From Nemertoderma westbladi (taxonomy: Eukaryota > Animalia > Xenacoelomorpha), in NCBI GenBank assembly GCA_032718475.1, contig JAUCBJ010008151.1, forward strand, positions 1 through 51,358: a DNA stretch of 51,358 bases, read 5' to 3'. Numbering within the stretch: the stretch's first letter is position 1; every line of letters begins with the position of its first letter. A model generated the notes under the pieces. The model was not told where the DNA came from, made no database searches, and was given only the letters and a program-made list of their open reading frames with translations. The translations under genes and the position numbers were made by a program. Below, piece by piece: positions 1 to 48,292 of the stretch.

Positions 1-515
1 CCGATTTATCCGATGTGGTATTTAGTCCACGCGTCCCCGCCGTGTATAAGAGTGAAATAAAGATAACTGAGTTCTGAAGTTCGGTGTATAATAATAGGTT
101 ATAGGATATAGATATATTGTGAATTATACGGTAGGCGGGATACGGTAACTAAAGTCCCGTGATCCCCTAACTAAACTAATTGGCTGTACCCTACGCTAGC
201 ACTGCTGCACTGAGATAACTGAATCACTGATTAATAGGTTATTGGTTATATTGCACGGTGGCCTTACTGCTACTCAATCGATGCCATTCCCCCCTCTGAT
301 TGGTTAATACCCTTGTTGGCGCCCCGTGGAGTATTCCCGTTCACTCCACCTGTTCTCCTTGGGTTAGGGGTTTGGCCCCTGACCCTCTATTGTGTGCTTC
401 CTTCCCACTCTCATTGGGATGGCACGAGTTGGTTAATTGCCCAATCTCGTGGCTCCCAATATTGCTTATCGGCTAATAACTTTATGGGGTGTTGGCGGGA
501 TTGAATAAGCTAACA
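1..515 (-). repeat. 3' LTR of the BEL element (truncated by the window edge)
   Basis: Matches 13594-14108 with 2 substitutions seen (positions 230 and 448). Begins TGTTAG on the minus strand directly after the PPT. Confidence 0.95.
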
Positions 516-524
516 CTCCCCCCC
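516..524 (-). promoter_or_regulatory. Polypurine tract (GGGGGGGAG) priming plus-strand synthesis
   Basis: Purine run immediately 5' of the 3' LTR's TG on the minus strand. Confidence 0.85.
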
Positions 525-1222
525 ATGCTATCTTCCCGGTAAGGAAGATAGCATCAACCTAAAAGTGCGTTACAATCCCGCTGGATCCCGATCTAGTATC
601 GGGTGTGGGGTGGAATTCTTTTCTCTAGGAGCCGGCTTTCCAGGCCGCCCCCTATGGGTATGATAACGCTACCCTGTGTGCCTGGCGTCTCATGTCGGGC
701 CGATCGCGCTCACCTCTTCACGCGATTTTTGTTTCCCCAACATTTTCGCCCTATCTCACCTTCACTCTCACCCTAACTCTCTCATACCCCCGGACCTCCT
801 CGTCCCTCACTCAGCCTCTTATTCTCCCCCCCCACACTAGAATTGCGTTCGCACTCTCTCCGCACTTCGCACTCTTATTCCGATTCTCAACTCCACTTTG
901 ACTGTTTTATCTCTCCTGACGAACCTCCCCCCCCTCTCGTGCCGTCGCACTCAAGAAGCGTGAAATTGTCAGTTGTCTCGTCCATAGTGCCATAGTCAAT
1001 TGTCCCCCAGTCCCAGTAGCTAATTGAGAAAGGTTGTATGACTATAGTACTTACTCCAAACGTATGTATTTTACTGCTAATCACTACGTACGTACATACA
1101 AATTGCACTTATATAGTTATTTGCGTTAATTAAATTTATACTTAATAGTTCGTACGTTGCATGCGGCGCCTTCCAGGCGCACCACTTCCCAGTCTCAGTC
1201 TCATTCCCTCGTCTCCGGGAAC

Positions 1223-3703
1223 TTATCTGTTCCTCCTCACGTCCTCTTCCCTGGCCCGTTTCTTGGTTATCACCGCTCCTCTGGCATCATCCGCTTTCTG
1301 CTTCCGGACCTTCGCTGCCACTTCCTTGCTGATCCCGGTCGTCGGCTCCTTGGGCGCTGGTGTTATTAATGCCCGATACCGCTTCGCCGGTGGCCCCTCG
1401 GAATGGCCTGGTTGTTTCCCTCGTGTGGCGTCCCATAGGATCATCTTCATTGCCTTTGGTACGTGTTCCGCCAAGAAATCCCTAAACTCCCTCCGGTTCT
1501 CTGGTGTCCACCTGTCCAGGTACCGTTGCGTGTTCATAACTCCGGCGAACGATGCCGCCGTTGCTACCTCTTGATAGGTAAACGGTAACCTTCGCTTTAT
1601 GATTTCCATGTGGGTCTCCTGGTTTATGAGGAAGAAACCCCACTTGAACTCTTGGGCCTTCATGCGCTGGCGCGTCATGGCCCCGACGTCGGCCCACTCC
1701 TCGAACCTCGTGAACTTCTCCTCGTCGCTCATCCAGTCGCACTCGCGTCTGTAGTGTCCCCGAAAGTGGCACTTTGGACATCGGTTATGCAACCGTGGAC
1801 ACGCCCCCATCCTGTGACTTGGTTCTCTACAGTAGAGACAAAAGGTTCCCCGTTGGAACCGGTATAGGCAGCTGCTTTCCTGATGGGTCTGTCTCCCACA
1901 GTAGTCGCAGCCGAGTACCAATGTCTCCCGTCCCACCTCGTCCTTCGTCCCAAGCGATCTCCGCGGTCTATGGAGTCGCTGGTAGGCAAACTTCTCCACG
2001 TTGCTCTCCCTGTTTACGTCGATCTCTCCGCCCCTCTCGGGCATCGTCTCCCCGAATACTATCCGTGGTGCCGTCCCCGGTTGCTCGCCCAACCTGATGG
2101 TGCTCCCCGCGAAATCCATCGCCGGCCCCTCGTGCACCCAGGTCCGCTTGCCGGATCTGTTCCAGAAGGCCCTCGCCCCACTGGCCGTCACCACCCTTCC
2201 GCCAACCCAGTCCGTGTCCGAGTGGCCTATCCTTTCGATGGGCGGCATCTCTCCGAACTCGTCGTCGTCGTCCTCCTCTTCTGGTAGTGTCTCCAATCCC
2301 GGTATCCCGATGGATCCACTATGTCCCTTCCCGCCTTGGCTCTCGCCCGTAGCTCTCCATCCCTCTAGCTCCCTTAACTTCCTTGGCGGTTGGTCGCCCT
2401 CGGCGCCCGCTGGTATGGGCATCGCGTGCAACCCCGACGTCGACTGTTTCGGCGATCCCACCGTCCATCCCAATTCTCGTCCTAGAGACTCCCCCGAACT
2501 CCCTGACGAAGTCCAATGAAGCTCGTCTAGACCTGCCTGTTCCTCGAAGCCATAACTCTGTGTCCTGGCCTCCTCTTCCCTCTCCTCTGCTTCTATCCTC
2601 TCCCGTCTAGCGACTTCTTCCAGTCGCTTTGCTTCCCATCTATCCATCTCTAGCTGCTCCCATCTCTGATACGGTGTATCCGTCTCCCCATCTACCAGAT
2701 GTCGGCTGTTGTAGTACACCGACTCGCCCTTCAGCCCCGGGTGGTCTACCAGACCGTCAAAGGCTGTCTTAAAGGCTCTCCTGTAGCTTAGGGGTGATCC
2801 CGATAACAGAAATGCCCCTGGTTCCCTTTCGATAACTACGGTCATGAATAAGTTAAGTAAACTTATCATCATCCAGTCTTCCTGCAGGATATATCGCTTC
2901 TGATATACCTTTATCGCTCCTCTGCGAAACTGATATACCTCCTGCTTTCCCGGTCTCGCTCCCCACTTCAGCGAGTTCGCTAGTTCTGCTCCGTATTCTT
3001 CCCTAAACTTCCCCCAATCCATTGGTTTGTGGCATACGAGCCCCAATAATTGGCCCATCGCCACCGCCCCGCTTTGGCCTGAGTTCTCGACTACCCCCAA
3101 TCCATCCGGTGCCGTCATAGCCATAAAGACTTTCTGCATATCCAGGAGGTTGGTGGCGTCCGGACCGATGATCCTCTCCGCGTCCTCGCGAATCGCCGAT
3201 CCCACTTTCGTCGTCGACTTCTCTCTTACTAAGACTTGTACCGCTTTCGGCAATCGGTCTAATTTCGGCCCGTCCTTCTTCCCATACGTCCCTAGGTCGA
3301 ATAAGAAGATGTCCCCATTTGGCGCTGCCAAATGCAAGAGTATGGTCCTGGCCGACCCTGCCATTCCTCGTCTCGAACCCGCTTCGTCTTCCACGGTTCC
3401 CTCGTCATCTAGGATCATATATCCTCCTCTGTTGACGGACTCTATGAATCTTTTCCAGTCCTTCCTCGGCGATTCCCTCGGATACTTCGGAATCCCGAAC
3501 TTCGCTTCGTCCCCTTTCACCACGTAGTGGAAGTGTTGGAAGATCGCGTTGTCCAGCGACGGCGTCCCGTAGGTCCCGACCAACCGCTGTTCGTGCGCCT
3601 CCCGGAAGTGATCCTGCAGCGCTCGTGCCGCGTGACCCCTTTCCAACCTCTCGTAGTATCCTCTCGTCTTCTCCTCCGGGTGTCTTTCGGTGAAATCCAC
3701 CAA
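1223..3703 (-). CDS. Retrotransposon-borne accessory protein: DEDDy (WRN/EXD2/Mut-7-like) 3'-5' exonuclease domain, acidic linker, three CCHC zinc knuckles, basic tail
   Basis: ExoI-like YMILDDEG, then LLHLAAPNGDIFLFDL, LPKAVQVLV..TKVGSAIREDAE (ExoII), LLDMQ and YQKRYILQED (ExoIII-like). Knuckles CDYCGRQTHQESSC, CLYCREPSHRMGAC, CPKCHFRGHYRREC. The tracked start is TTG; an in-frame ATG lies at 3757 beyond one TAA. Confidence 0.8.
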   Translation of the reverse strand: MVDFTERHPEEKTRGYYERLERGHAARALQDHFREAHEQRLVGTYGTPSLDNAIFQHFHYVVKGDEAKFGIPKYPRESPRKDWKRFIESVNRGGYMILDDEGTVEDEAGSRRGMAGSARTILLHLAAPNGDIFLFDLGTYGKKDGPKLDRLPKAVQVLVREKSTTKVGSAIREDAERIIGPDATNLLDMQKVFMAMTAPDGLGVVENSGQSGAVAMGQLLGLVCHKPMDWGKFREEYGAELANSLKWGARPGKQEVYQFRRGAIKVYQKRYILQEDWMMISLLNLFMTVVIEREPGAFLLSGSPLSYRRAFKTAFDGLVDHPGLKGESVYYNSRHLVDGETDTPYQRWEQLEMDRWEAKRLEEVARRERIEAEEREEEARTQSYGFEEQAGLDELHWTSSGSSGESLGRELGWTVGSPKQSTSGLHAMPIPAGAEGDQPPRKLRELEGWRATGESQGGKGHSGSIGIPGLETLPEEEDDDDEFGEMPPIERIGHSDTDWVGGRVVTASGARAFWNRSGKRTWVHEGPAMDFAGSTIRLGEQPGTAPRIVFGETMPERGGEIDVNRESNVEKFAYQRLHRPRRSLGTKDEVGRETLVLGCDYCGRQTHQESSCLYRFQRGTFCLYCREPSHRMGACPRLHNRCPKCHFRGHYRRECDWMSDEEKFTRFEEWADVGAMTRQRMKAQEFKWGFFLINQETHMEIIKRRLPFTYQEVATAASFAGVMNTQRYLDRWTPENRREFRDFLAEHVPKAMKMILWDATRGKQPGHSEGPPAKRYRALITPAPKEPTTGISKEVAAKVRKQKADDARGAVITKKRAREEDVRRNR

Positions 3704-4261
3704 TATTTATTTTCCTCCTGACTCCGCCTTTCTCTTCCTGATCAGCTTACTCGCCATTCCGAACACTACACTCGCTCACCTGTAGGGTGGTGCCTTACCA
3801 AGGCGCAATACAGATGAGTGATGTATTAAGATGTTTCGTACAGTTCGATAATGGCCTACTTTTCTACTTAACTGCGCCTTTCAAGCTTAATTTAATCTAA
3901 TTAATTTCGGAGCTAGTAAATCAGCCTAATTTACAATTTCCGTCCGTTACTTTTATTATGTTCTAGAACGACTTTCCTTGTGTTACCACTATTTTTCGAT
4001 TTTTTAGCCCTATTCTATTTATTTATTTATTTGCTTTGATTCTACTGTCCTACTACTTACTACTGCCTATGGATTTATTCTATTCTCTCTCTGATCCATA
4101 TTCTGGCCTACTCAGTGGGCCTATGCAGTACAGCAGTATGCGTCGTGTGGCCACACGATTTATCCAGCTGCACTCATATGCCCCCCTCTCGCTACTAACT
4201 CTACTTACTGCTAACTAATATCTATATCCTATTTACCCCTTTTACCTCTTACTCTCTCTCT

Positions 4262-4948
4262 CTCTAACTAATGGTACTACGTACCCTCTAACTCTAACTC
4301 TAACTAGGTACTACGTACCTACTAACTCTCTAACTATCGGTACTACGTACCCTCTAACTCTAACTCTAACTAGGTACTACGTACCTACTAACTCTCTAAC
4401 TATCGGTACTACGTACCCTCTAACTCTAACTCTAACTAGGTACTACGTACCTACTAACTCTAACTCTAACTAGGTACTACGTACCTACTAACTCTCTAAC
4501 TACCGGTACTACGTACCCTCTAACTCTAACTAACTATTGGTACTACGTACCCTCTAACTCTAACTATCGGTACTACGTACCCTCTAACTCTAACTCTAAC
4601 TAGGTACTACGTACCTACTAACTCTCTAACTATCGGTACTACGTACCCTCTAACTAACTAACTAACTCTAGGTACTACGTGCCTACTAACTCTCTAACTC
4701 TAGGTACTACGTACCCTCTAACTCTAACTAACTATTGGTACTACGTGCCTACTAACTCTCTAACTCTAGGTACTACGTACCCTCTAACTCTAACTAACTA
4801 TTGGTACTACGTACCTACTAACTCTCTAACTCTAGGTACTACGTACCTTCTAACTCTAACTTTAGGCACTACGTACCTACTAACTAACTAACTAACTCTA
4901 ACTAACTAACTCTAGGTACTACGTACCTACTAACTAACTAACTAACTC
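4262..4948. repeat. Tandem array of ~20 GGTACTACGTACC palindromic cores separated by CTAA/CTAACT-rich linkers (period mostly 30-36 bp)
   Basis: Cores counted by eye from 4273 to 4915; followed by a (TTTTA)n tract at 4949-4981. Confidence 0.9.
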
Positions 4949-5061
4949 TTATTTTTTATTTTATTTTATTTTATTTTATTTGTGTGGGAAGGGCGTCTCG
5001 CCCTCAATCCCACCCCCCTCAGTCCAAAACTTGGACGACTAAACTCTACTCTAACTCTATA

Positions 5062-6061
5062 TTAAGGTGCCCCTTCAAGAAGACAGCATTTACCTACCGC
5101 TCTCCTGTAGGTTTTTCTGTCCTTCGCGTGTCCTGTCGTTTTTCTTTCCACCTATCCGCACTTCTACCGATCGGACTCTTCCGTCCTCGTCGGAGTAGGT
5201 GCCTACGACTCTCGCCAACCGCCACTGGTTGTTGATGATAGTGTCGTCCGTGACGATTACGAGATCTCCCTCTCTTAACTCCCTGTTCGGCTTCCTCCAC
5301 TTGCTTCGCTTATGGAGCGTGGGTAGGTATTCCTCTACCCACCTCCTCCAATACTCTGCGCTAATTGCTTTAGCTACTTTCCAACTTTGGCGGGAGTGTA
5401 TATCATCTGGGTCCACACCCCGCATATCGATGGTCGCTGGCCTTTCCATCAGAAAATGGCTAGGCGTCAGCACATCTAACGACTCAGGGTCATCATTCTC
5501 CGGATATAGCGGTCTGCTATTAATGATCCCCTCGCACTTCGCAAGTACCGTCCGTAAGACGTCTTCAGTGACCATGTGGGTGTTCATCAGCTTCGTCATT
5601 AGACGTTTTGAACTGCCCACCAGTCTTTCGACGCATCCTAGTGTATGTGGTGCATACGGCGTCCGTCTTTCCCACTTTACTTGTCGTCTCCTCATGGCCG
5701 CCCTGACTTCTTCTCCCTCCAAGATGTCTAAGGCCTCTGCCATCTCACTCTCTGCGCCCACAAAGTTGGTGCCGTTGTCGCTATATATCACTGCGATCGT
5801 CCCACCTTTGCGGTCCCTAAACCTTTCTAAGGCGTTAATGAACGCTGATGCGGTTGCATCTTGGGCGAGTTCTATCCCTACCGCCCGCGTATTGTTGCAT
5901 ACGAAGATAATACCGTAGCGTTTCTCCGTGTGTCGCATCACCTTGATCTTTATCGGCCCGAACATGTCCACACCGCAATGCGTAAATGGCGGGTCGTGCT
6001 GTCTTACCCTACTCGCCGGTAGTGGCGCCATCTCCTGTACGGCTCGCTCCTTCTTCGCTCG
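5062..6061 (-). CDS. Integrase catalytic core and C-terminal domain of BEL pol (in-frame continuation after the TGA at 6062-6064; probable 1-bp frameshift near the end)
   Basis: MAPLPASRV, PFTHCGVDMFGP, KRYGIIFVC, IYSDNGTNFVGAE, GCVERLV, LTPSHFL, WVEEYLPTL, GDLVIV, WRLARV, DGRVRSV. A shifted frame ends TYRRAVGKCCLLEGAP* at 5062. Confidence 0.9.
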
Positions 6062-9000
6062 TCAGCAGGTCTGGCACTGCCCCACTACCGCTTTCACCTT
6101 TTTCCTTAATTGTTTGACCCAATAGGTCCTTCTTATCTCTGTGAGGGTTCGGTTGGTGCCCCCATGCAGTATCGATTTGTGGGAGTCCCATATGATCTGG
6201 TGGACTATAGGCGATCCTGTGGGAATGATGATGGGTTTCGGTGGCACGACTATACTGTTGTTATATCCCACCCTAGAATTCATTACTAGGATCCCATCCT
6301 CGTTGAGTTGTGGCGACAGCGTGATCAACTCGCTATCCCGTCGGAGGTGCTGTTGGTTACCGACACGTTCCACCTCGTCGCCGTAGTTCTTGCGTTGTTC
6401 ATAGCGGATCACTGCCTTGGCCGCTCCTTCCAGATCTATGGTTGTCCTGGTCTTCTTGTCCTTGCCGACTCCCGCAAGGAAATTCCCAAAGGCTCTCCAG
6501 TACGCCACTAGTTTCTTGGTCTTATACCAACTAGAACTGTAGCTGAGGAGTTTATCCGTCGGGTTATCGCACAGTTCCCTTCCTGGTTGAACGTCCCTAA
6601 TCTCCCTCACCATCTGGGAGTATATCTCTTCTCCCTCTGAATCTCCCTCTCCTTCTGATACTGGTTCCGAGCCCGGGTCCACCTTCCTCATCGGCGGCCA
6701 GGCCTCCCTATCGCTCAGAAATTGTGGCCCATGTTGCCACAATACTTCCTTCTTCAGGAAAGTGTGGCGTTCCACGCCCCTCGACAGCAAGTCCGCTGGG
6801 TTCTCATCTGTTGAGCAGTAGTGCCACCTTTCCAGTTCTGTGCTCGCCCTTATTTCGTCCACTCTATTCGCGACGAATATCGGGTATCTCGTCTTTTCGT
6901 TGTGTAGCCAACCAAGCACTACCATGGAGTCCATCCAGTAGTGTGTCTCCACTATGTTGGGAATTGTATCCACTAGGTAGGCTGTGGCTCTAACTCCTAG
7001 TCTCGCAGCTGTCAATTCTAACTTGGGAACAGATGCTGAATCTGGCGGCGTTGACTTAGCTTTGCTAAAGGCTAGTCTGGGCTTGTGAGGCCCCTCTCGT
7101 TGTACTAAATAGAGTGCCGCTCCGTATGCCTCTAACGACGCGTCGGAGAACATATGTAAGTCCAGATTCGTCATGTTCCCGTCCGGAAAATACACTCGCG
7201 GCATGTTGTATGTTCCCATCCTCTCCAAGTCTCCTGTCCATTTGCTCCACTGTTTCTTGATGTCCTCTGGTACCTCTACATCCCACTCATCCTTCAATTT
7301 ATATACTCTCTTGAGTATCTGTTTCCCCGTGACTAGTAATGGGGATGCTAGGCCTAGGGGATCGTATATCCTTGCTATATACGATACATAACCCCTCTTC
7401 GTTTGGGTGTCTGCGCCCTCTTGGCTCAGCTGATACTTCAGTTCGTCTGTTCCTCTATCCCACACGATTCCCAATGCCTTTTGCTGCGATTGTGTTCTCT
7501 TATTCGCCATGTCCTGTCCTTTGGCTGTTGTAGGGTTATCCATGGTCGATCCTGGTTTCTTGTCTTCTATTTCCTTGATAAATTCTTCTGAACTGGATTG
7601 GAATTTGGTCAGGTTGAAGCCGGATCCTTTCAGGATGTCGCGAACCTCGCGCCCTGTTTCCAGTATCTCCTCAACCGTATTTCCAGACTCCATACCGTCG
7701 TCTACGTAGAAGCCGCGTCGGATCATATCGACGGCCCTACTGCTGTATCTATCTTCCTTCCCTTTTACCGTGTCTCTCACTGCCATAGTCGTCGTAAATG
7801 AGGACGACTTGGCCCCCATATTTTGTACTACCATCTTATACACTGGTATTACCGGCGGTTCTTCTTCGCCGTTATACCATAAGAAGCGTTGACTATCGCT
7901 ATCTTCCTCTGTTACTCGGACTTGGTTGAACATGCCTTCTATGTCACACGTGAAGGCGTGTTTCCCATTCCGAAACCTAAGTAACACCTCTATGCCCGAA
8001 TTGTAAATATTTGGGCCTTCCAACAGGTAATCGTTTAAGCATTTTCCGTCGGTCTTTGCCGATGCATCGACTACCATCCTCAGTTTACCTTTCTTTGGGT
8101 CTAATGCTACGTGGAGTGGCAGGTAGTATGTCCTGTCCGTATTCGGCTCGTCGACCGGTAACTCCACGGCCCATCCTTTCTCGACGTACTTCTTAATGGT
8201 TTTGTGAATGTACTCGTTCTTCTCGGGGCTCCGTTGTAGTGTTTGTTTCAGCTTGCGGAGTCTCGTGAGTACCATCCCTCTATTATCGGGTAGCGGTATC
8301 TTCGGTAGTTTCCATACCATTCCTATTGTATACCGCCCCTCATCACATGTCATCGATTCCTCCACACTTTGTAGAGCCTGCTTGTCTTCTACCGAGGTCC
8401 CGACCCCTGTATCTTTCAGTCCCTCGAAGTCTTGTCTGAGCAGTCTTTTAAGCTGCTCCTCTGCTCCCTCGTCACCCATTTCCTGCATTGTTCCCGCGAA
8501 CATGCATCCTGATGTCTCCGACATCCTGAATGGTATCTTGCTCTTAATTGGACCACTCAGCGTCCACCCGAATGGCGTTAATATGGCCACCGGGTCGCTC
8601 TGCTTGTCTTCGCCGAAGACCGTTTGCATTCTCTCGTGGGCCGTTGGGCAGTCCATGCCTACTATGATGGATACCTTCCTAACGTCCACGTCTGGGATTG
8701 AGAAGTCAATGTTGTCCAGGAATTTGTATTGCTCGACCTCGATGTTGGTTGGCCGCCTGGCATTGATGTTAATTGACTCTATTACTTGGATGGGGTCGAT
8801 GGTTGCCCCATAATCGCATCCTGGTGCCACTGCTGCAATTGCGCACTGTCCTGTCCTCATCTCTAGGATCTCGTCTTTGCTAGAGATGGTTGTCACCGCC
8901 ATCCTGCTTGGCCTCGTTCTCAACCCTATTTCTTCGGCTACCCATTCCTCAACTAATGTGAAGGCAGCTCCACTATCAACCAGCATTAGTGTTGTTACTG

Positions 9001-12000
9001 ATCGATTGCCTTCCCCGATCACTCGTACTGGTACTACTCCAAGTAGCACTGTTCCTCTCTTCTTCGCCCCTATTGTGCTCGTTGCCATCGTCTGGCCTCT
9101 CCTTTGGCCAAACTTGACCGGCTTCTCTTGGCATTCCCTGGCCTTGTGTCCACTCTTTACACATCGCGAGCAGATTTTATTGCTCGACGCGTAATCTATC
9201 TGGTCTTGCCTCGGTAGCGCCTGCCAGTACCTGCAGTTCATGGTTTTATGAAGCGCATTTGCGTGTAACTGGCATTTGCTCTTTGGGTCGTAGCCCTCTT
9301 TATACAATGCGTTGCGTATCGCAGTTATATTTGTACCAAAGTCCCTACTATTCTTATTGACTGGATTTGGCCTACTGGACGTACTGGGGTTATGTTTATT
9401 CATGTTGTTATTGTTCCCCTGTCCGTCCCTTGATGTTGTCTTATCTTCGCTTGTCTGTGGACTTGCAGTCCCCTGCGTCGCTGCATATGGCAATGATTGC
9501 CTGAGTCTCGGTAACGCGTTTGATGTATTGTGCTCTGGTTTGGGCCTGTAGTGATCTGTCTTTGGTCCCTTTCCCAGGCTATCTTCACTATAGACTGGGT
9601 CCGTTATTAGTTCAGCCTCGTAATTTAAGAAGTTTGACATTTCTTCTAAACCTGGTTCCGCACCCTTCTTGTCTCGGGTGGAGAAAGCGATCTTCCTCCA
9701 TTTGTTGCGCAGCCAGCTCGGTAGTGCCTGCGCTATCGTGGTGATGTTATTGGACGCGTTGAGCTCGTATGGCGCGTCTAGCGTCTTCAGCACGATCAGC
9801 GCCTTCTCGACTTTGTTAGCAAACGTCTTAATGCTAACGGGGTTATCCTGTAGGCCACCCGATGTTATGCCTCTCAGCGTCTGCCTGATGATCTTGGCCG
9901 GGTGCCCGTATTCCCTATCCAGTGCCCGCCATGCTGTCGTGAAGCCGCCCTCTATTCCCTGATATTGCCTCACGATGTCGTATGCTGGGCCTCCCGTGTA
10001 CACTTGTAGATACTTTAGGCACTCCGCCTGCGTCAAGTTTTTTGTTAGTATTTCGTTACTATACATTCGCCGAAACTGTAAGTATTCTTCCGGCCTGCTC
10101 CCATCGAATTTGAACGGTTCCACGGGTGGTAATTCGATCCTCGTTTTCAACGCATCGATCAACGTGGCCATCCCCATTGCCTGCGCTTCTAATGGATTCG
10201 ACGGGTGCTGTATAGTTTCCCCTGTCTGGTGCGGTTCGTCCGTCCTATTTCTTGATCTTCTCTGACTCGGATATGTCATTGGGGGTAGCGGCCCCCTCCA
10301 TATGTCTGTATCACACGATCTGTTTTCGTCCAAGGGTCTCGTTGTTCTTGCTACCATCGGGGTATATTGTTGATATTGTGATGGGGGAATGTCACCCTGT
10401 CCCCCCCCCCCCACCGGTATGTCTGGTACTGGGGTTGATGTTAATACGTTGGGGCCCATGCACCTATCCGCAATGATTCCCCCCTCCCCTGGGTATATGT
10501 TATGTCCCTGCATGCTGTAGTCATACTGCTGTGCTGGTACCGGTATAGGCCTATCAGCTTCTGGCCTACCCGCCGGTATGTATTCCGCGACTTCCGGGTT
10601 TAATCCCGTTGTCCGCGCTATCCTATCGCCTACATTGCCTCTCTCAGTATGGCCTACAGTATGTGCAGTAAGACCTACAGTATGCCCTACAGTCTGCATG
10701 TGTTGCTCGGGATCGAAGTTTATTCTTCTCGAATAATCCTCCCCGCGGCTACCGTATTCTCGATCGGTAGGTATATTCCGTCGGAAAGTTTCTCTTCGAC
10801 CCCCCTCTCCACTGTTTTCATCTTCGTACCGGTACATCGCGTACCCCTCTCTCGGCGTGTAATGCGTCTCACCGGATCGCATCCCTCCGGGGCGACGGCA
10901 ATCTCCCGGAGTCCGACCCCACTGACTCTCCGTTCTCATCTCGACTACCGACGGCTCGCTGTCCGTCCTCGCTCTTCTATCTTTTGCGGCGATGCTTCTA
11001 CTACTCTCTTCCTCTCTTCTCCTATCAGTGGAATATTCCCGCTCACGAGATCTCTCGTCGACCTCCCGGTTAAACCCCACTGTTCTTCTTTCCTCCTCTG
11101 ATCGGGCTCGACGCTCCGTCTGCCCTCCCGCGACGTCAACCTGTCTTTCTCTGCTCGATCGCACGTCGCTGGGGATACTCGCAATCCCCCTATTACTTTC
11201 CGTCGCCGGTTGTTGCGGTTTACCTTGTTCGGCCCTCGCATTGTCCGCTGACGGCTGTGGGACACTCTCTGCCCCCCCCCCCCCCCTCTCGCCGCTAACT
11301 CTCTGTTGTGGGGCCTTTGTAGCCCCCCCCCACTCGCTACATTCTACTTCGCTACCTCTCGCCCCGCTACTATATATCTCTCTAGTCGACACATCAATCC
11401 TGCCACAGTCGGGTCTATTCACCCCCGCCTCTCCCTCTGCTATTGCGTGGCCTTCCAGGCCCTCTACTCCCTGCCTACCAACTACGCGGCCTACCAGGCC
11501 CTCTGCTCCCTGTCTACTAACTACGTGGCCTACCAGGCCCTCTGCTCCCTGGTTACGTAGGCCCGACGTGTTTACATTAATAGCACCCATATTGGAAACG
11601 GAATTAATTTGCTCATTTGAAACAAAATCATTTGTATTATTCTGCGCGACTACGTTATCTGAATTATTTTGTAAATTCGGGCTAAGATCATTATTTGAAT
11701 TATTCGAATTATTCTGTGTAATTGCGTTATTTAAGTTATTTTGTAGGTCCGAATTCGAGTTATTATTTTGATTATTTGAATTATTTTGCGTAACTACATC
11801 AATATTAGGATTATTTTCTACATTAACACTGGGATTGTTCTGATTTAAATTTAAATTACTACCACTAGGCAAAGTATTTCCTGTAATAAAGGTTTGATTA
11901 GCGTTATCCCATACGGTACTATTAATATCAACAACGTCTACTGTACCATTATTATTATCACCCCCCCCCCCCCCCCCCCCGCCCGTATGGTTACACCAGT

Positions 12001-13456
12001 TCTGGGTCTGTCGTGCGGTCCCTGTCAGTGGGGTGTTAATGAACGTGTCTACGGCTCCTGGCCCCTCAAAAATACTCGAGCCGGCCCCGCTTTCAGACGG
12101 CAACACTCGGACCAATTCCAGCTCGTGCGCCCGTCTAATCTTATTTTTTGCCGATACACCTTGGCGTTTCTCTAATTCCCTTAACTCTCGCTCAGCCTTT
12201 GCCCCTCTCTCCTCACTCTCCTGGCTGTCCCGTCTGGCCGACTCTACTACACTCCTAGCGTTCTCCCTTCGTCTCGCCTCACGTTCTTTGCGTTCCTTTT
12301 CCCTTCTTGCCTCACGTTCCTTGCGTTCCTCGTCCTCCCTTGCCTCACGCTCTCTGCACTCCTTTTCCTCTATTTCGTCACTCTCCCTAAGGCTCCTCAA
12401 AGCCCTTTCGACCCTCTCACCGTTCTCTTTAATCAATGCCGCTTCCCTCGCTAACCGCGCTCTCCCCTCCTCTAGCCGTTCCTCCATTTCCTTCTGACCT
12501 TGCTCTGCCACGTCGAGGCGGTATGCGGCACCTATCTCTCTCACCACTCTTTCTTTCGCGGAGGATGTAACAGACTTATCGGTTACGACGGACTTCCCCC
12601 GCCTTCCCGACCTACTAACTTTCCCCGGCCTCCCGGAGCTTTCTCCGACCGACGAGGCCGAATCCTCGGGGTTAACCTCGGATTCGCCCCCTTCGAGTCC
12701 CCTCCAACCCACTGGTTTTACTCCCCGGGCATCGACCAAGTATGGCCCTATGTACACTGGCGCTACACTAGGTTCCATACTCCCACACTCCCATAGTTCA
12801 AACAGTTCGCCGGCTATCCTTTCTGCTCTCTCCCCGGCCAGTTCTCTCTGCCCAAAACGTATTAGGTAATTTAAGTGTCTATCCGACTCACCTAGTCGCT
12901 TTCTCAGTCTCACCTCGTCTACCTTCGCCCCTTCCTTCTTGGCGTCGTTTATCAGCTTCCGGGTCGCGTTGTAGGCCCGTCGAAGTCGCTCAGAAACCCC
13001 GACGTCCTCGTCGCCGACCTCTCCTCCGTCCCTCCGGGTTCGACGTCGTACCGGCGGCTCCACCGTCGCCGTTCCGGTGGGCCGTCCGTCGCCCTCGGCC
13101 TGTAGCTGGCCGGCGACATCGGTACCGATCTCTCCTCCGTCTCTTCGCGTCCGGCGCCGCACCGTCGGCCCCACCGTCGCCGTTTCGGTGGGCCGCCCGT
13201 CGCCCTCGGCCGGTAGCTGGCCGGCGACATCGGCGCGCCGTTCTCCCTCTCGTGTCGACTCGTCTCCCTCTCCCTCCGTCTCGCTCTCTCTCTCTCTTGG
13301 CTCGACTTCGGGTTCCAGGCCCTCCTCGTCCTGGACTTCCGGTTCGCCCGTAATCGATGGCTCCGGCGTCGTGGGCCTGTATCGCTTGGTCGCGGCCTCG
13401 CGGATCGTTTGATCTTCGTCCGGGGTCCGCGGTGGTGTCTCGCCCGACTCACTCAT
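6062..13456 (-). CDS. BEL/Pao gag-pol polyprotein (long low-complexity N-terminus, gag, aspartic protease, RT, RNase H, integrase zinc finger)
   Basis: Gag LPPVEPFKFDG..EY; knuckles CQLH..H..C and CSRCVKSGHKAREC; protease LVDSGA; RT FYVDD; RNase H FSDAS/WMDS/NPAD; integrase HHCC (HKSILHGG...CQTC). Confidence 0.96.
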   Translation of the reverse strand: MSESGETPPRTPDEDQTIREAATKRYRPTTPEPSITGEPEVQDEEGLEPEVEPRERESETEGEGDESTREGERRADVAGQLPAEGDGRPTETATVGPTVRRRTRRDGGEIGTDVAGQLQAEGDGRPTGTATVEPPVRRRTRRDGGEVGDEDVGVSERLRRAYNATRKLINDAKKEGAKVDEVRLRKRLGESDRHLNYLIRFGQRELAGERAERIAGELFELWECGSMEPSVAPVYIGPYLVDARGVKPVGWRGLEGGESEVNPEDSASSVGESSGRPGKVSRSGRRGKSVVTDKSVTSSAKERVVREIGAAYRLDVAEQGQKEMEERLEEGRARLAREAALIKENGERVERALRSLRESDEIEEKECREREAREDEERKEREARREKERKEREARRRENARSVVESARRDSQESEERGAKAERELRELEKRQGVSAKNKIRRAHELELVRVLPSESGAGSSIFEGPGAVDTFINTPLTGTARQTQNWCNHTGGGGGGGGDNNNGTVDVVDINSTVWDNANQTFITGNTLPSGSNLNLNQNNPSVNVENNPNIDVVTQNNSNNQNNNSNSDLQNNLNNAITQNNSNNSNNDLSPNLQNNSDNVVAQNNTNDFVSNEQINSVSNMGAINVNTSGLRNQGAEGLVGHVVSRQGAEGLVGRVVGRQGVEGLEGHAIAEGEAGVNRPDCGRIDVSTREIYSSGARGSEVECSEWGGATKAPQQRVSGERGGGGAESVPQPSADNARAEQGKPQQPATESNRGIASIPSDVRSSRERQVDVAGGQTERRARSEEERRTVGFNREVDERSREREYSTDRRREEESSRSIAAKDRRARTDSEPSVVEMRTESQWGRTPGDCRRPGGMRSGETHYTPREGYAMYRYEDENSGEGGRRETFRRNIPTDREYGSRGEDYSRRINFDPEQHMQTVGHTVGLTAHTVGHTERGNVGDRIARTTGLNPEVAEYIPAGRPEADRPIPVPAQQYDYSMQGHNIYPGEGGIIADRCMGPNVLTSTPVPDIPVGGGGQGDIPPSQYQQYTPMVARTTRPLDENRSCDTDIWRGPLPPMTYPSQRRSRNRTDEPHQTGETIQHPSNPLEAQAMGMATLIDALKTRIELPPVEPFKFDGSRPEEYLQFRRMYSNEILTKNLTQAECLKYLQVYTGGPAYDIVRQYQGIEGGFTTAWRALDREYGHPAKIIRQTLRGITSGGLQDNPVSIKTFANKVEKALIVLKTLDAPYELNASNNITTIAQALPSWLRNKWRKIAFSTRDKKGAEPGLEEMSNFLNYEAELITDPVYSEDSLGKGPKTDHYRPKPEHNTSNALPRLRQSLPYAATQGTASPQTSEDKTTSRDGQGNNNNMNKHNPSTSSRPNPVNKNSRDFGTNITAIRNALYKEGYDPKSKCQLHANALHKTMNCRYWQALPRQDQIDYASSNKICSRCVKSGHKARECQEKPVKFGQRRGQTMATSTIGAKKRGTVLLGVVPVRVIGEGNRSVTTLMLVDSGAAFTLVEEWVAEEIGLRTRPSRMAVTTISSKDEILEMRTGQCAIAAVAPGCDYGATIDPIQVIESININARRPTNIEVEQYKFLDNIDFSIPDVDVRKVSIIVGMDCPTAHERMQTVFGEDKQSDPVAILTPFGWTLSGPIKSKIPFRMSETSGCMFAGTMQEMGDEGAEEQLKRLLRQDFEGLKDTGVGTSVEDKQALQSVEESMTCDEGRYTIGMVWKLPKIPLPDNRGMVLTRLRKLKQTLQRSPEKNEYIHKTIKKYVEKGWAVELPVDEPNTDRTYYLPLHVALDPKKGKLRMVVDASAKTDGKCLNDYLLEGPNIYNSGIEVLLRFRNGKHAFTCDIEGMFNQVRVTEEDSDSQRFLWYNGEEEPPVIPVYKMVVQNMGAKSSSFTTTMAVRDTVKGKEDRYSSRAVDMIRRGFYVDDGMESGNTVEEILETGREVRDILKGSGFNLTKFQSSSEEFIKEIEDKKPGSTMDNPTTAKGQDMANKRTQSQQKALGIVWDRGTDELKYQLSQEGADTQTKRGYVSYIARIYDPLGLASPLLVTGKQILKRVYKLKDEWDVEVPEDIKKQWSKWTGDLERMGTYNMPRVYFPDGNMTNLDLHMFSDASLEAYGAALYLVQREGPHKPRLAFSKAKSTPPDSASVPKLELTAARLGVRATAYLVDTIPNIVETHYWMDSMVVLGWLHNEKTRYPIFVANRVDEIRASTELERWHYCSTDENPADLLSRGVERHTFLKKEVLWQHGPQFLSDREAWPPMRKVDPGSEPVSEGEGDSEGEEIYSQMVREIRDVQPGRELCDNPTDKLLSYSSSWYKTKKLVAYWRAFGNFLAGVGKDKKTRTTIDLEGAAKAVIRYEQRKNYGDEVERVGNQQHLRRDSELITLSPQLNEDGILVMNSRVGYNNSIVVPPKPIIIPTGSPIVHQIIWDSHKSILHGGTNRTLTEIRRTYWVKQLRKKVKAVVGQCQTC

Positions 13457-13561
13457 CTCGTTTGTGGTTGATGATTCGGCTAGCTAGGTTGCAGTTCTTA
13501 GAGTTTAACTAGGGCGGCAGCTCGGTTTAGTTACTGAATTTAGCTGGGGAAGCAACACCGT

Positions 13562-13570
13562 TTTAGTTAC
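13562..13570 (-). promoter_or_regulatory. Primer-binding-site position with non-tRNA sequence (GTAACTAAA)
   Basis: Directly follows the inferred LTR end (..TCACA). Lacks TGG. Perfectly complementary to 13738-13746 inside the LTR. Confidence 0.5.
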
Positions 13571-14108
13571 TGTGACGGGATCCAGGAGGGATCCCGATTT
13601 ATCCGATGTGGTATTTAGTCCACGCGTCCCCGCCGTGTATAAGAGTGAAATAAAGATAACTGAGTTCTGAAGTTCGGTGTATAATAATAGGTTATAGGAT
13701 ATAGATATATTGTGAATTATACGGTAGGCGGGATACGGTAACTAAAGTCCCGTGATCCCCTAACTAAACTAATTGGCTGTACCCTACGCTAGCACTGCTG
13801 CACTGAGATAACTGAATCACTGGTTAATAGGTTATTGGTTATATTGCACGGTGGCCTTACTGCTACTCAATCGATGCCATTCCCCCCTCTGATTGGTTAA
13901 TACCCTTGTTGGCGCCCCGTGGAGTATTCCCGTTCACTCCACCTGTTCTCCTTGGGTTAGGGGTTTGGCCCCTGACCCTCTATTGTGTGCTTCCTTCCCA
14001 CTCTCATTGGGATGGCACGAGTTGGTTAATTGCCCAATCTAGTGGCTCCCAATATTGCTTATCGGCTAATAACTTTATGGGGTGTTGGCGGGATTGAATA
14101 AGCTAACA
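13571..14108 (-). repeat. 5' LTR of the BEL element (538 bp, TG...CA)
   Basis: Minus strand reads TGTTAGC...CCGTCACA. The 14108 boundary is fixed by comparison with 1-515; the 13571 boundary is inferred from the TG/CA terminus because the partner end is outside the window. Confidence 0.9.
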
Positions 14109-14270
14109 AAATGTCGGCTCGCTTTCATTTTTATTATTGACAGATTGTTAACTTACCCGGCGCTGAGCCTTGCAGTACTGGAGTCCACCCACTGAGGCAT
14201 TAATAGAGTACACAGTCTTATAAAAGGAGTTGAATGGAGCTTCGTTAAAGGAGTATGTATAATAATCTGA

Positions 14271-14510
14271 ACGTCCCGAAATTAATTTATGGACGTCCCG
14301 AAATTAATTTATGGACGTCCCGAAATTAATTTATGGACGTCCCGAAATTAACTATATGGACGTCCCGAAATTAACTTATGGACGTCCCGAATTTAACTTA
14401 TGGACGTCCCGAAATTAATTTATGGACGTCCCGAAATTAATCTATCAACCAATCAGAATCGTAATGAAATAACTAATTAATGGACGTCCATAAATTAATT
14501 TCGGGATGTT
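14271..14510. repeat. ~8 tandem 22-bp units (GGACGTCCCGAAATTAATTTAT) plus one inverted copy
   Basis: Units at 14271-14445; reverse-complement unit ATAAATTAATTTCGGGATGT around 14490-14510. Confidence 0.88.
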
Positions 14511-14589
14511 AATTTCGGAAATTAATTTCAATAATATTTTTAAATTTTTTTAAATATTTTTTTACAATGTATAATTCGCGGACACTGCG

Positions 14590-15484: not shown

Positions 15485-18400
15485 TGTACAGATCCACATC
15501 AAACTGTATAATTATCATACAGGAGGCATACATACATAGTACACTGTATTATGTATGTATTAAGTATTATTATGTATTAAGTATTATGTACACATTAGTA
15601 GGTAAAAAAAAAATAGAAAAAAATAAATCTATAATTTTCATACAGGAGGCCTACATACATAGTACATACTGTACCAACTGATACGAATACAGAACCACAT
15701 CAAACTGTAAAATTATCATACAGTAGGCCTACATACATAGTACACTGTACCTACTGATACGTGATACGAATACAGATCTACATCAAACTGTATAATTATC
15801 ATACAGGATGCCTACATACATCGTACATACTGATGCGTATACAGATCCACATCAAACTGTATAATTATCATACAGGAGGCCTACATACATAGTACATACT
15901 GTACCAACTGATACGAATACAGATCCACATCAAACTGTATAATTATCATACAGGAGGCCTACATACATAGTACATACTGTACCAACTGATACGAATACAG
16001 AACCACATCAAACTGTATAATTAGCATACAGGAGGCCTACATACATCGTACATACTGATACGTATACAGATCCACATCAAACTGTATAATTATCATACAG
16101 TAGGCCTACATACATAGTACACTGAACCTACTGATACGAATACAGAACCACATCAAACTGTATAATTATCATACAGGATGCCTACATACATCGTACATAC
16201 TGATGCGTATACAGATCCACATCAATCTGTATAATTATCATACAGGAGGACTACATACATAGTACATACTGTACCAACTGATACGAATACAGAACCACAT
16301 CAAACTGTATAATTATCATACAGTAGGCCTACATACATAGTACATACTGTATCAACTGATACGAATACAGATCCACATCAAACTGTATAATTATCATACA
16401 GGAGGCCTACATACATAGTACATACTGTACCAACTGATACGAATACAGATCCACATCAAACTGTATAATTATCATACAGTAGGCCTACATACAAGTACAT
16501 ACTGTACCAACTGATACGAATACAGATCCACATCAAACTGTATAATTATCATACAGGAGGCCTACATACATAGTGCATACTGTACCAACTGATACGAATA
16601 CAGAACCACATCAAACTGTATAATTATCATACAGTAGGCCTACATACATAGTACATACTGTACCAACTGATACGAATACAGATCCACATCAAACTGTATA
16701 ATTATCATAAGAGGCCTACATACATAGTACATACTGTACCAACTGATACGAATACAGATCCACATCAAACTGTATAATTATCATAAGAGGCCTACATACA
16801 TAGTACATACTGTACCAACTGATACGAATACAGATCCACATCAAACTGTATAATTATCATAAGAGGCCTACATTCATAGTACATACTGTATCAACTGATA
16901 CGAATACAGAACCACATCAAACTGTATAATTATCATAGAGGAGGCCTACATACATAGTACATACTGTACCAACTGATACGAATACAGATCCACATCAAAC
17001 TGTATAATTATCATAAGAGGCCTACATACATAGTACATACTGTACCAACTGATACGAATACAGAACCACATCAAACTGTATAATTATCATACAGGAGGCC
17101 TACATACATAGTACATACTGTACCAACTGATACGAATACAGAACCACATCAAACTGTATAATTATCATACAGGACGCCTACATACACAGTACATACTGTA
17201 CCAACTGATACGAATACAGAACCACATCAAACTGTATAATTATCATACAGGACGCCTACATACATAGTACATACTGTACCAACTGATACGAATACAGATC
17301 TACATCAAACTGTATAATTATCATACAGGAGGCCTACATACACAGTACATACTGTACCAACTGATACGAATACAGAACCACATCAAACTGTATAATTATC
17401 ATACAGGAGGCCTACATACATAGTACATACTGTACCAACTGATACGAATACAGATCCACATCAAACTGTATAATTATCATACAGGAGGCCTACATACACA
17501 GTACATACTGTACCAACTGATACGAATACAGAACCACATCAAACTGTATAATTATCATACAGGACGCCTACATACATAGTACATACTGTACCAACTGATA
17601 CGAATACAGATCCACATCAAACTGTATAATTATCATACAAGAGGCCTACATACATAGTACATACTGTACCAACTGATACGAATACAGATCCACATCAAAC
17701 AACTGTATAATTATCATACAGTAGGCCTACATACATAGTACATGCTGTACCAACTGATAACGAATACAGAACCACATCAAACTGTATAATTATCATAGGA
17801 GGCCTACATACATAGTACATACTGTACCAACTGATACGAATACAGATCTACATCAAACTGTATAATTATCATACAGGACGCCTACATACATAGTACATAC
17901 TGTACCAACTGATACGAATACAGAACCACATCAAACTGTATAATTATCATACAGGACGCCTACATACATAGTACATACTGTACCAACTGATACGAATACA
18001 GATCCACATCAAACTGTATAATTATCATACAAGAGGCCTACATACATAGTACATACTGTACCAACTGATACGAATACAGATCCACATCAAACAACTGTAT
18101 AATTATCATACAGTAGGCCTACATACATAGTACATGCTGTACCAACTGATACGAATACAGAACCACATCAAACTGTATAATTATCATAGGAGGCCTACAT
18201 ACATAGTACATACTGTACCAACTGATACGAATACAGATCTACATCAAACTGTATAATTATCATACAGGACGCCTACATACATCGTACATAATGTACCAAC
18301 TGATACGAATACAGATCCACATCAAACTGTATAATTATCATACAGGAGGCCTACATACACAGTACAGACTGTACCAACTGATACGAATACAGAACCACAT

Positions 18401-19907
18401 CAAACTGTATAATTATCATACAGGAGGCCTACATACACAGTACAGACTGTACCAACTGATACGAATACAGATCTACATCAAACTGTATAATTATCATAGG
18501 AGGCCTACATTCATAGTACATACTGTATCAACTGATACGAATACAGATCCACATCAAACTGTATAATTATCATACAGAAGGCCTACATACATAGTACATA
18601 CTGTACCAACTGATACGAATACAGAACCACATCAAACTGTATAATTATCATACAGGAGGCCTACATACACAGTACAGACTGTACCAACTGATACGAATAC
18701 AGATCTACATCAAACTGTATAATTATCATAGGAGGCCTACATTCATAGTACATACTGTATCAACTGATACGAATACAGATCCACATCAAACTGTATAATT
18801 ATCATAGGAGGCCTACATACATAGTACATACTGTACCAACTGATACGAATACAGATCTACATCAAACTGTATAATTATCATACAGGACGCCTACATACAT
18901 CGTACATAATGTACCAACTGATACTAATACAGATCCACATCAAACTGTATAATTATCATACAGGAGGCCTACATACACAGTACAGACTGTACCAACTGAT
19001 ACGAATACAGAACCACATCAAACTGTATAATTATCATACAGGAGGCCTACATACACAGTACAGACTGTACCAACTGATACGAATACAGATCTACATCAAA
19101 CTGTATAATTATCATAGGAGGCCTACATTCATAGTACATACTGTATCAACTGATACGAATACAGATCCACATCAAACTGTATAATTATCATACAGAAGGC
19201 CTACATACATAGTACATACTGTACCAACTGATACGAATACAGAACCACATCAAACTGTATAATTATCATAGGAGGCCTACATTCATAGTACATACTGTAT
19301 CAACTGATACGAATACAGATCCACATCAAACTGTATAATTATCATACAGAAGGCCTACATACATAGTACATACTGTACCAACTGATACGAATACAGAACC
19401 ACATCAAACTGTATAATTATCATAGGAGGCCTACATACATAGTACATACATACTGTACCAACTGATACGAATACAGATCCACATCAAACTGTATAATTAT
19501 CATAGGAGGCCTACATTCATAGTACATACTGTACCAACTGATACGAATACAGATCCACATCAAACTGTATAATTATCATACAGGAGGCCTACATACATAG
19601 TACATACTGTACCAACTGATACGAATACAGAACCACATCAAACTGTATAATTATCATACAGGAGGCCTACATACATAGTACATACTGTACCAACTGATAC
19701 GAATACAGAACCACATCAAACTGTATAATTATCATACAGGAGGCCTACATACATAGTACATACTGTACCAACTGATAGAATACAGATCTACATCAAACTG
19801 TATAATTATCATACAGGAGGCCTACATACATAGTACATACTGTACCAACTGATACGAATACAGAACCACATCAAACTGTATAATTATCATACAGGAGGCC
19901 TACATAC
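15485..19907. repeat. 78-bp tandem satellite, roughly 55 copies
   Basis: Unit TACAGATCCACATCAAACTGTATAATTATCATACAGGAGGCCTACATACATAGTACATACTGTACCAACTGATACGAA with minor variants; degenerate at its left end. Confidence 0.97.
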
Positions 19908-21227
19908 CTGCTACCACAAGTTAGAAAAATCAACATGAGCTGATGACTGATTGTGTGTGCCTGGAGGTTTTTTAATTTAATTCTAGACCTACTATTGGGC
20001 CTACAGTAACTCGGAAACAGTTTAGTGTTGTTTAATGCATGGGTATAGGTATCTCGTGTTTGAATATGCTGTGTAAAGATTGGAAAGTAGGGGTTAATTA
20101 TTTTTACAGGATTAGGAGCGACTGCAAATAACTGTAAGATTTGCTTATTAGTGAAGCATTCTGTTAATGTACCATATTCCATACTATATATATATACTGT
20201 ACCACATTATACTGTTCCGCACACTATACATACTGCATGTAAAATAGTGTACTGTAGGTAAATAACAACCTGAAGTTACAGCTCTTTAACATGGTTGGCC
20301 GGAAGTCGGAGTCGAAAGCCTCAAAGAATTCTACATGATGCGAGAATGGATTCCTGGTTACTTCTAACTTTTTGGAACCCATTTTGGTTGTGGTGCAGGA
20401 GATTTTCCATGGGATCCCTTATCCTGTTCATGATATTTTATCTAATAGCTCAGCTGTAAACGAGATCAGACTGTTTCTGTTATATGAAAGAAAAAGTTTT
20501 CGTTTCTATGGGTCAACAAATACCTAAATTGACCTTGTGGTGCATTTTTAAATGTTTGAGCATTGGATAAAGTAATTGTAAGAATTCATGGATCTTGAAT
20601 AGTTCAGGAGTTACACAATCACATGCTTTATTGGTCTACATAGAAGCTGCAGTAGTGATAGGGTGGACACTGTCATTGGCTGTACCGGTCACAGCATTCA
20701 CAGCATTGTACCTGTCCCAGTAATTAATTTCTTCACGGGTGGTTTGTAGTCACACTGATGGAAATCCTAACAGTGAATGTATACTAAATTAACACTTGGG
20801 TTTTTCATGGCAGAGCAGTCATGACTTTGGAGACTTCTTGGAGACGAAAATGAGTTTTGTCTTGCACCCACCAAGACGACGGTGAGTTTGGAAATGTGGC
20901 TGCTGGAAGCATTAAATTGAATAAAAAAAACTCAAGATTTCCCGAATTTTGATTGAATTATTGCTGTACACAGAATGCATATTTGAGCTGAAAGATAAAG
21001 AGGAATTGGAGCACCCGAGAATGCCAAGGATACCTTTTTGAGCTTATCCATAATCCTCCCTTAGCTGTCCTGAACTTACATTGTACCATAGGCCCTATCA
21101 TACCGTGTACAACGCCATACGATACCATACTTTACCATACAGAATCATACCATAAGCAGTCAGACTGACTTTTTACATAGGGATAAGTTGTTGGCTATTT
21201 CATACTGAACCTACTGTTCCAAAATTG

Positions 21228-48210: not shown

Positions 48211-48292
48211 TGACTGTAATTAGTACCGTTTTATACAAATACGGTAAACTCGATACTTTGACACTCACTTCACTTGACTTACAACTACCGAA

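Follow-up and report, generated by a model that had tools for sequence, protein, structure and literature searches.

Why should a long terminal repeat (LTR) retrotransposon carry what looks like a nuclease gene, in addition to gag and pol? The question is raised by a stretch of DNA from the xenacoelomorph Nemertoderma westbladi (GenBank assembly GCA_032718475.1, contig JAUCBJ010008151.1, positions 1 to 51,358 of the forward strand), all 51,358 nucleotides of which are referred to here as the window. Its minus strand holds a 14-kb LTR element, and between pol and the polypurine tract of that element lies a third open reading frame (ORF3), for which an earlier note, made from the letters alone, had proposed a DEDDy 3'-5' exonuclease followed by three zinc knuckles. 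The analysis presented here shows ORF3 to be a selected gene of a large family with many copies, and indicates that its product probably has the DnaQ/DEDDy fold. How the element uses it is a matter for more tentative proposals.

The gene and its damage in this copy

ORF3 is on the same strand as the gag-pol and integrase frames and occupies the env slot, with a spacer of 1.3 kb separating it from pol and about 0.7 kb separating it from the 3' LTR (Table 1). None of the three frames listed on the opposite strand over 1986-5918 is longer than 239 codons, compared with the 827 of ORF3, whose base composition resembles that of gag-pol and differs from that of the host ABC gene described below. In order from the N-terminus, the protein has a basic start, a nuclease-like domain, a charged helix, a long linker, three knuckles, a hydrophobic domain and a basic tail. 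All of the motifs read in the earlier note were located again, including the three CX2CX4HX4C knuckles and, in the nuclease-like domain, ILDDEG (3415), LLHLA (3340), IFLFDL (3310), KVGSAIRED (3208), LLDMQ (3148) and QKRYILQED (2902). Library support for the knuckles is weak (Pfam zf-CCHC_4, E 0.13; a Gag knuckle in the PDB, E 0.15), and the hydrophobic domain matches no Pfam family. The basic tail is a possible nuclear localisation or RNA-binding signal. The usual Kyte-Doolittle threshold for a transmembrane segment is about 1.6. No transmembrane stretch was found in ORF3, the best 19-residue mean being 1.3; this rules out an env gene, and nucleic-acid-binding motifs are present.

The frame is open over 1223-3703 and gives 826 residues without an internal stop, as originally counted, but that count runs from stop to stop, and a premature stop codon at 3709-3707 cuts the gene 16 codons after an in-frame ATG at 3757. 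The 826-residue frame has its first methionine at residue 96, where the ExoI motif lies. In all three of the DNA runs compared below (X1, X2 and X3), essentially all of the depth differs from the window inside this stop codon, and the stop is therefore apparently private to this copy. The gag-pol frame, of 2473 codons, is likewise cut short, by a stop codon at 6064-6062 that falls in the zinc-finger region of the integrase. This copy is thus broken twice, by one early stop in ORF3 and one in pol; both breaks had been overlooked in the earlier note. Judged from the sequence, ORF3 is likely to be a gene of about 840 codons that was damaged in this copy after insertion, which is consistent with the small divergence of the LTRs and with the stop in pol.

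The predicted nuclease domain

The domain resembles the PF01612 (DNA_pol_A_exo1) group, comprising WRN-exo, EXD2, Mut-7 (Nibbler), EXD1, Egalitarian and RNase D, in the order and spacing of the ExoI, ExoII and ExoIII motifs, in the K-x-G ahead of ExoII, in the DL motif, in a Trp two places past the last acidic residue and in its neighbours in the ESM Atlas. It differs from the group in having Tyr-x3-Glu in ExoIII, several insertions and no Pfam score. In the ESM Atlas, 25 of the 30 matches belong to PF01612 (score 0.94, 178 of 256 features shared), and among the named matches all 30 do so, with overall scores of 0.92-0.94 and 169-179 shared features, one of them being named a Werner syndrome-like exonuclease. 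A WRN-type profile was also used, made from 42 bacterial proteins that were collected with a seed itself matching WRN and EXD2 structures. It scores the domain at 8.9 bits, a value reached by none of 2000 shuffles (970 were scored, the best at 7.3), whereas the reversed sequence scores -2.4. With hhalign, the domain gives E 0.0055, compared with 0.63 for the linker as a control.

The MAFFT alignment places KVGSAIRED on KVGVGIAQD and YILQEDW on YAATDAW, with 16-24% identity to the aligned bacterial members. The four metal-binding places then read D99, E101, D174 and E275, and Y271 is kept. For ExoI, the D-x-E is D99-D100-E101, on a strand predicted at model residues 15-21, a register chosen by visual comparison with the invariant D and E. 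For ExoII, D174 is aligned to the invariant Asp in the profile search, in hhalign and in MAFFT. A model aided by the alignment (predicted local distance difference test score, pLDDT, 69.8; predicted template modelling score, pTM, 0.67) gives matches to RNase D, NrnC, Egalitarian, WRN, Nibbler and EXD1 with Z scores of 10.6-12.1 (for the highest, a root-mean-square deviation of 3.4 over 170 aligned residues), one of the Egalitarian structures being bound to I-factor RNA.

Several results weigh against this assignment, and they begin with the sequence searches. Pfam gives no family for the domain at E up to 1 or up to 10, the domain lying below the PF01612 cut-off, so that the DNA_pol_A_exo1 match which the earlier note suggested looking for did not appear; neither an HRDC domain nor an Rrp6 family is detected there. 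NCBIfam and PDB sequence searches likewise give no match for it. No true homologue came from word-index searches, which covered 5.8 billion clusters and used residues 40-340, the domain alone and the knuckle region as queries, and HMMER against 1.84 billion representatives returned a single spurious match, to a 2805-residue repeat protein in which 19 residues were matched 14 times. Searches of metagenome and viral contigs with the domain gave no match, and an exact look-up none; one plasmid match, at E 0.9, was dismissed. The WRN-type profile does rank ORF3 first of 3608 peptides, but not significantly (E 1.2), and the hhalign probability is 6.6%, over 73 columns that cover neither ExoI nor ExoIII. 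In ExoI, MAFFT opened a gap and put D100, not D99, beneath the Asp. ExoIII reads Y271-x3-E275, with Glu replacing the Asp of Y-x3-D and an Asp following at 276, and for this reason the domain is filed as DEDDy-like and not as canonical DEDDy. The departure from YxxxD had already been pointed out; the correction needed is that E275, and not D276, is at the fourth catalytic position. Finally, a single-sequence AlphaFold2 model is poor (pLDDT 32) and has its best match, at Z 4.3, to unrelated helices. The alignment-aided model was folded on known DEDDy proteins and its matches are largely circular, so that it is evidence of compatibility only.

Given the agreement of Atlas, profile and alignment, we consider it probable, with good confidence, that the domain has a DnaQ/DEDDy fold and that its metal-binding places are occupied by the four acidic residues D99, E101, D174 and E275. 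The DEDDy call in the earlier note is therefore likely to be right but not secure: Pfam and PDB sequence searches gave no match, the first of the two models gave unrelated matches, and the second matched the DEDDy family in a largely circular way.

It is worth adding that the top three Atlas matches (0.94-0.95) are eukaryotic clusters without a name, 213-214 residues long, with Basidiomycota as the commonest taxon. These may be other divergent exonucleases, possibly carried by transposons.

Family copies and selection

Six public runs contain the stretch or part of it, and three DNA runs (X1 and X2 from one sample, and X3) were compared over 516-4250. Another, X5, which is guessed to be an RNA run, has 9 contigs here and carries no message about expression. 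Contigs on this region number 5021 in X1, 7808 in X2 and 4510 in X3, with 30 of 30 bins covered. Their identities to the window range from less than 90% to more than 99%, and at most 1% of them run on into unlike sequence. All 10 of the small-indel rows listed fall outside 1223-3757. Among 28 listed differences in ORF3, drawn from the best-supported 40 of 347 places, 19 are synonymous against an expected 22-30% (binomial p 3e-7 to 4e-5; rough omega 0.14-0.20). Of the nine nonsynonymous differences listed, two fall in the same codon and five are almost confined to this copy; those listed at codon 275 are synonymous. In pol (6194-6428), by comparison, synonymous changes make up 16 of 19 listed differences (19 of 40 rows were classed). 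The summed depth of ORF3 relative to pol is 0.94 in X1 and 0.97 in X3, summed depth being different from copy number.

Because the contigs are many, no listed indel falls within the gene, synonymous differences are in excess and the depth is like that of pol, ORF3 is taken as a selected family gene and not a one-off capture, and it is apparently under purifying selection. Capture by a single copy and neutral evolution, which the earlier note had set out as ways in which its reading could fail, are thus not what was seen, the latter among the differences listed. A separately nested element was also looked for and rejected: the two spacers share no inverted match that reaches 11 bases, and an A-tail is absent.

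Besides the limits just given on the choice of differences and on summed depth, some further observations weigh on the other side. Depth over the nuclease part amounts in X1 to only about half of that over pol (16442 compared with 31612), and all three runs contain minor copies with internal deletions in ORF3, in which 1200-1745 is skipped (depth 375-421). Linkage of ORF3 to pol is directly visible only in this window, as no piece spans the whole stretch and 4251-4989 is outside the comparison.

Relatives were sought in 80 environmental BEL/Pao-type loci that were found with the integrase, 31 of which have at least 3.5 kb downstream. No relative of ORF3 was detected in these loci by tblastn (best E 0.55), phmmer or the WRN-type profile, and the long frames downstream, read by eye, turn out to be either the gag-pol of adjacent elements or different transposon genes. 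Since the 31 loci with enough downstream sequence show no relative, ORF3 is not general in BEL/Pao, which does not imply that it is absent at large.

The carrier element

The carrier of ORF3 is, by its sequence, a BEL/Pao-type retrotransposon. It has TG...CA LTRs, which differ at 2 of 515 positions (1-515 compared with 13594-14108), and a polypurine tract. Its single gag-pol frame has the domain order Gag-protease-reverse transcriptase (RT)-ribonuclease H (RNase H)-integrase with Pao-type profiles (Pfam DUF1759 3.9e-11, Peptidase_A17 7e-40, Integrase_H2C2 3.7e-10), the RT motif YVDD being at 7708 and the RNase H motif DAS at 7144. The integrase is 33-43% identical to those of the 80 related environmental loci and has no match among viral contigs; Pfam gives no match to a dUTPase in the element. 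A BEL/Pao carrier with near-identical LTRs and ORF3 in the env slot had been recognised in the earlier note, and this stands. In run X6 one contig departs from the window sequence near 13591, that is, close to the inner end of the 5' LTR.

A triple Cys-His box in Gag is regarded as a hallmark of BEL/Pao, with Tas named as an exception (PMC554778). The Gag of this copy has one canonical box, one CX2HX4HX4C variant and no third, and for this reason the element is labelled BEL/Pao-type. The third box is present in 46 of 46 related loci that have two (46 of the 80 loci being readable), and its loss here may be a family trait or a deletion private to this copy.

Within Gag, the two boxes are at 9274-8980, and only about 50 residues lie between them and the protease motif. 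The Gag region (13483-9300) is very long, having about 1100 residues ahead of DUF1759 that are charged, rich in Asn and built partly of repeated segments (111-, 39- and 33-bp repeats). The tandem repeat in the spacer between pol and ORF3 is about 680 bp long with a palindromic core, and could act as a promoter, an enhancer or an RNA structure for ORF3.

Relation to known systems

DEDDy exonucleases are already in print as third genes of LTR retrotransposons. They were gained at least twice by the bdelloid rotifer elements Juno and Vesta (Juno1/2 and Vesta2/5) and are shared with the Penelope-like Athena/Terminon elements, with DEDD changed to DEED (Rodriguez, Kenefick and Arkhipova 2017, PMC5408684), an account repeated in two reviews (PMC6431247, PMC5718144). 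The bdelloid genes, compared with ORF3 by description only, are similar in being separate frames behind pol in the env position, in being DEDDy-like with no transmembrane segment, and in having one catalytic Asp replaced by Glu (DEDE here, DEED in bdelloids). Activity is putative in both, a role in 3'-end processing or in silencing having been proposed for the bdelloid proteins (PMC5408684). In contrast, the carrier here is BEL/Pao-type and lacks a dUTPase match, being neither a Juno or Vesta element with dUTPase nor Penelope-like. ORF3 is also built differently, with about 840 codons, three CCHC knuckles and a further domain, whereas the bdelloid DEDDy ORF3s are described as having only a Cys-His-Cys motif, in two of them. 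Many copies and a synonymous excess are seen here; the bdelloid variation data concern env and GDSL ORF3s only, and are neutral (PMC5408684).

Two other systems are similar in part. Dada DNA transposons of Laccaria bicolor and Ectocarpus siliculosus have a DEDDy-type DnaQ-like exonuclease, with a proposed role in 3'-end processing (Kojima and Jurka 2013, PMC3706591), but there the domain lies within a DDE transposase and keeps all four DEDD residues, while here it is in a separate retrotransposon gene. BEL/Pao elements at times carry env, as do Tas and Cer7 (PMC554778), and ORF3 resembles these in being an extra gene in a BEL/Pao element without being an envelope gene. Outside transposons, viral exonucleases serve in proofreading or in immune suppression (PMC7968707).

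No BEL/Pao element with an exonuclease frame was found in the literature searched, which included a word search of PMC8556966; Repbase, subscription journals and supplements were outside its scope and may hold one. The earlier note's statement that no such BEL element had been described thus holds as far as was searched, but because DEDDy third genes of LTR retrotransposons are published (PMC5408684), the finding is less surprising than it had seemed. What is new, within that search, is the BEL/Pao carrier, the extreme divergence of the domain, the triple knuckle and the signs of purifying selection. That a very divergent version is kept, with a synonymous excess, throughout a large family belonging to another superfamily is suggestive of gain on repeated, independent occasions and of a genuine advantage. 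If ORF3 is merely another DEDDy ORF3, the known pattern is extended to BEL/Pao. In either case the many copies offer a system for measuring selection, expression and activity, in which RNA-end processing could be distinguished from counter-defence.

Possible functions of ORF3

The proposal that we place first, tentatively and at slightly less than an even chance, is that ORF3 is the third gene of a BEL/Pao-type family and encodes a protein with three knuckles and a predicted DEDDy-type 3'-5' exonuclease, which binds the RNA of the element and trims RNA 3' ends for replication. Because ORF3 lies 1.3 kb behind pol, the protein would probably be made from its own or from a spliced message, as is said of the bdelloid ORF3s (PMC5408684). 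It would be an active nuclease despite the Glu in place of the last Asp, and its knuckles would grip single-stranded RNA while the nuclease chewed an unpaired 3' end back to a duplex or a bound protein. This is the way in which RNase D, Rrp6 and Nibbler act on unpaired 3' ends.

There are two candidate substrates. The first would be the 3' end of the element transcript: neither AATAAA nor ATTAAA is present in the LTR or the 3' spacer. The second would be the primer of reverse transcription: no tRNA-type primer-binding site (TGG) was found at the leader start, and ARAGORN found no tRNA. The first 9 bases of the leader are a complement of an LTR-internal segment, which is no more than suggestive of possible self-priming; when the LTR was shuffled by dinucleotides, 20 of 2000 shuffles reached 9 bases. 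The missing poly(A) hexamer and the 9-base complement are weak hints of work for the ORF3 nuclease. Processing of 3' ends has also been proposed for the bdelloid DEDDy ORF3 (PMC5408684).

A primer built by splicing was considered and rejected, since none of 276 GT-AG joins within the LTR yielded 10 or more complementary bases. A crude scan of 3741-4300 found no strong splice acceptor and no TATA box. A second copy of the 9-base leader stretch is present at 13534-13526, and some family copies skip 13522-13562 in the leader region.

One alternative is that an active nuclease serves in counter-defence, by binding, shortening or destroying the host's PIWI-interacting RNAs (piRNAs) or small interfering RNAs that target the element, or their precursors. 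Nibbler and EXD1 act in small-RNA pathways, and their domains are among the structural matches of the model, circular as it is. Three knuckles would suit short single-stranded RNA, and copies of the family are numerous. Small-RNA pathways are said to include EXD1 and mut-7 (PMC5408684), and an arenaviral exonuclease suppresses innate immune signalling (PMC7968707). The Z scores of the model for RNase D, NrnC, Egalitarian, WRN, Nibbler and EXD1, however, all fall within a span of about 1.5 units, so that none of these is favoured; fast evolution might be expected of such a gene, yet the listed differences are mostly synonymous; and bdelloid small RNAs also cover the families that bear ORF3 (PMC5408684). 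We regard this function as unlikely. Its most specific form, that a BEL/Pao lineage independently gained a knuckle-guided 3'-5' exonuclease and uses it on the piRNAs aimed at the element, is rather less likely again. If true, it would explain the many copies and would provide a retrotransposon-encoded anti-piRNA enzyme that could be assayed directly.

The replacement of the ExoIII Asp by Glu would also fit a protein that has given up catalysis, in which the fold, like that of EXD1 and Egalitarian, serves to bind RNA and acts with the knuckles as an adaptor that packages, shields or transports the element RNA. Both of those proteins are among the model matches, including the Egalitarian structure with I-factor RNA, and such an adaptor would perhaps compensate for a reduced Gag nucleocapsid, given the third box that is missing here and present in all of the readable related loci with two. 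This too seems to us unlikely: the four acidic positions and Y271 are all retained, which a dead enzyme would not need, and the missing Gag box may be a deletion in this copy rather than a trait of the family.

It is improbable that the domain is not a DEDDy nuclease at all, or that the frame is a passenger kept for some other reason, with a chance likeness of motifs. Every unbiased sequence search is blank, the single-sequence model is poor, and, according to the documentation of the tool, 4-10 of 100 shuffled proteins attain an Atlas score of 0.9; but the three motif blocks are in the correct order and spacing, two independent kinds of test agree (the ESM Atlas, and the profile against shuffles), and the frame is under apparent purifying selection.

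The least probable role is on DNA, as a proofreader for RT or a trimmer of cDNA ends before integration that permits a 14-kb genome, as ORF3 is separate from pol with no link to RT seen, the 14 kb include ORF3 itself and the long low-complexity Gag, and the copies are widely different (many contigs below 90%), with no hint of high fidelity. In favour of such a role, WRN-type domains act on DNA ends, and the basic ends of ORF3 suggest nuclear import. There are also published parallels, in the processing of cleaved 3' ends proposed for the Dada domain (PMC3706591) and in the proofreading exonuclease of nidoviruses (PMC7968707).

Features of the window

The features of the element are collected in Table 1.

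Table 1. Features of the BEL/Pao-type element, listed from its 5' to its 3' end (window coordinates).
Feature	Position	Strand	Description
5' LTR	13571..14108	-	538 bp, TG...CA; repeat of 1-515; inner end placed at 13571 from the CA end
Leader start at primer-binding position	13562..13570	-	9 bases complementary to LTR-internal 13746-13738
gag-pol frame	6062..13483	-	Gag (DUF1759), two Cys-His boxes (one canonical, one variant), protease, RT, RNase H, start of integrase
Remaining integrase	5090..6061	-	323 codons, same register as gag-pol, downstream of the stop; Pfam rve 5.2e-05, DUF5641 1.4e-23
Tandem repeat	4262..4944	.	Periods of 32-34 and 66 bp, within the 1.3-kb pol-ORF3 spacer
Likely ORF3 start	3707..3757	-	Probable ATG at 3757, basic KLIRKRK stretch, then premature stop 3709-3707
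ORF3 open frame	1223..3706	-	827 codons stop to stop; 1223-3703 encodes 826 residues
Predicted nuclease-like domain	2804..3463	-	From ESM Atlas, profile tests, alignment and alignment-aided model
Gly/Ser/Pro-rich acidic linker	1919..2548	-	From composition by segment; probably disordered
Three CX2CX4HX4C zinc knuckles	1739..1909	-	1909-1868, 1840-1799, 1780-1739; from motif positions
C-terminal part of ORF3	1226..1723	-	Hydrophobic domain 1723-1394, basic tail 1393-1226 (30% Lys/Arg)
Polypurine tract	516..524	-	Purine run immediately before the 3' LTR
3' LTR	1..515	-	Truncated at the window edge; outer end beyond the window

Just beyond the 5' LTR, at 14238-14529, are 22-bp tandem repeats with inverted copies, which look like the end of a DNA transposon. 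A satellite array with a unit of 76-78 bp follows at 15487-19907, with further units near 35605-37099, and a segmental duplication of about 4 kb (18404-22331 and 35605-39538) has 95.6% identity between copies that are 17.2 kb apart. The frame at 23187-26858 is an uninterrupted 1223 codons and encodes a full ABC transporter, in which membrane and ATPase domains are each present twice and which reads as ABCC-like; its 3' part is repeated 13.7 kb downstream, at 39855-40544. Other mobile elements are represented by a long interspersed nuclear element (27338-30971) with ORF1 and an endonuclease-RT frame, split near 30500, and by a Gag-protease fragment of another LTR element (34192-35205). A coiled-coil frame of 585 codons at 48278-50035 has no Pfam match and may be the Gag of a further element.

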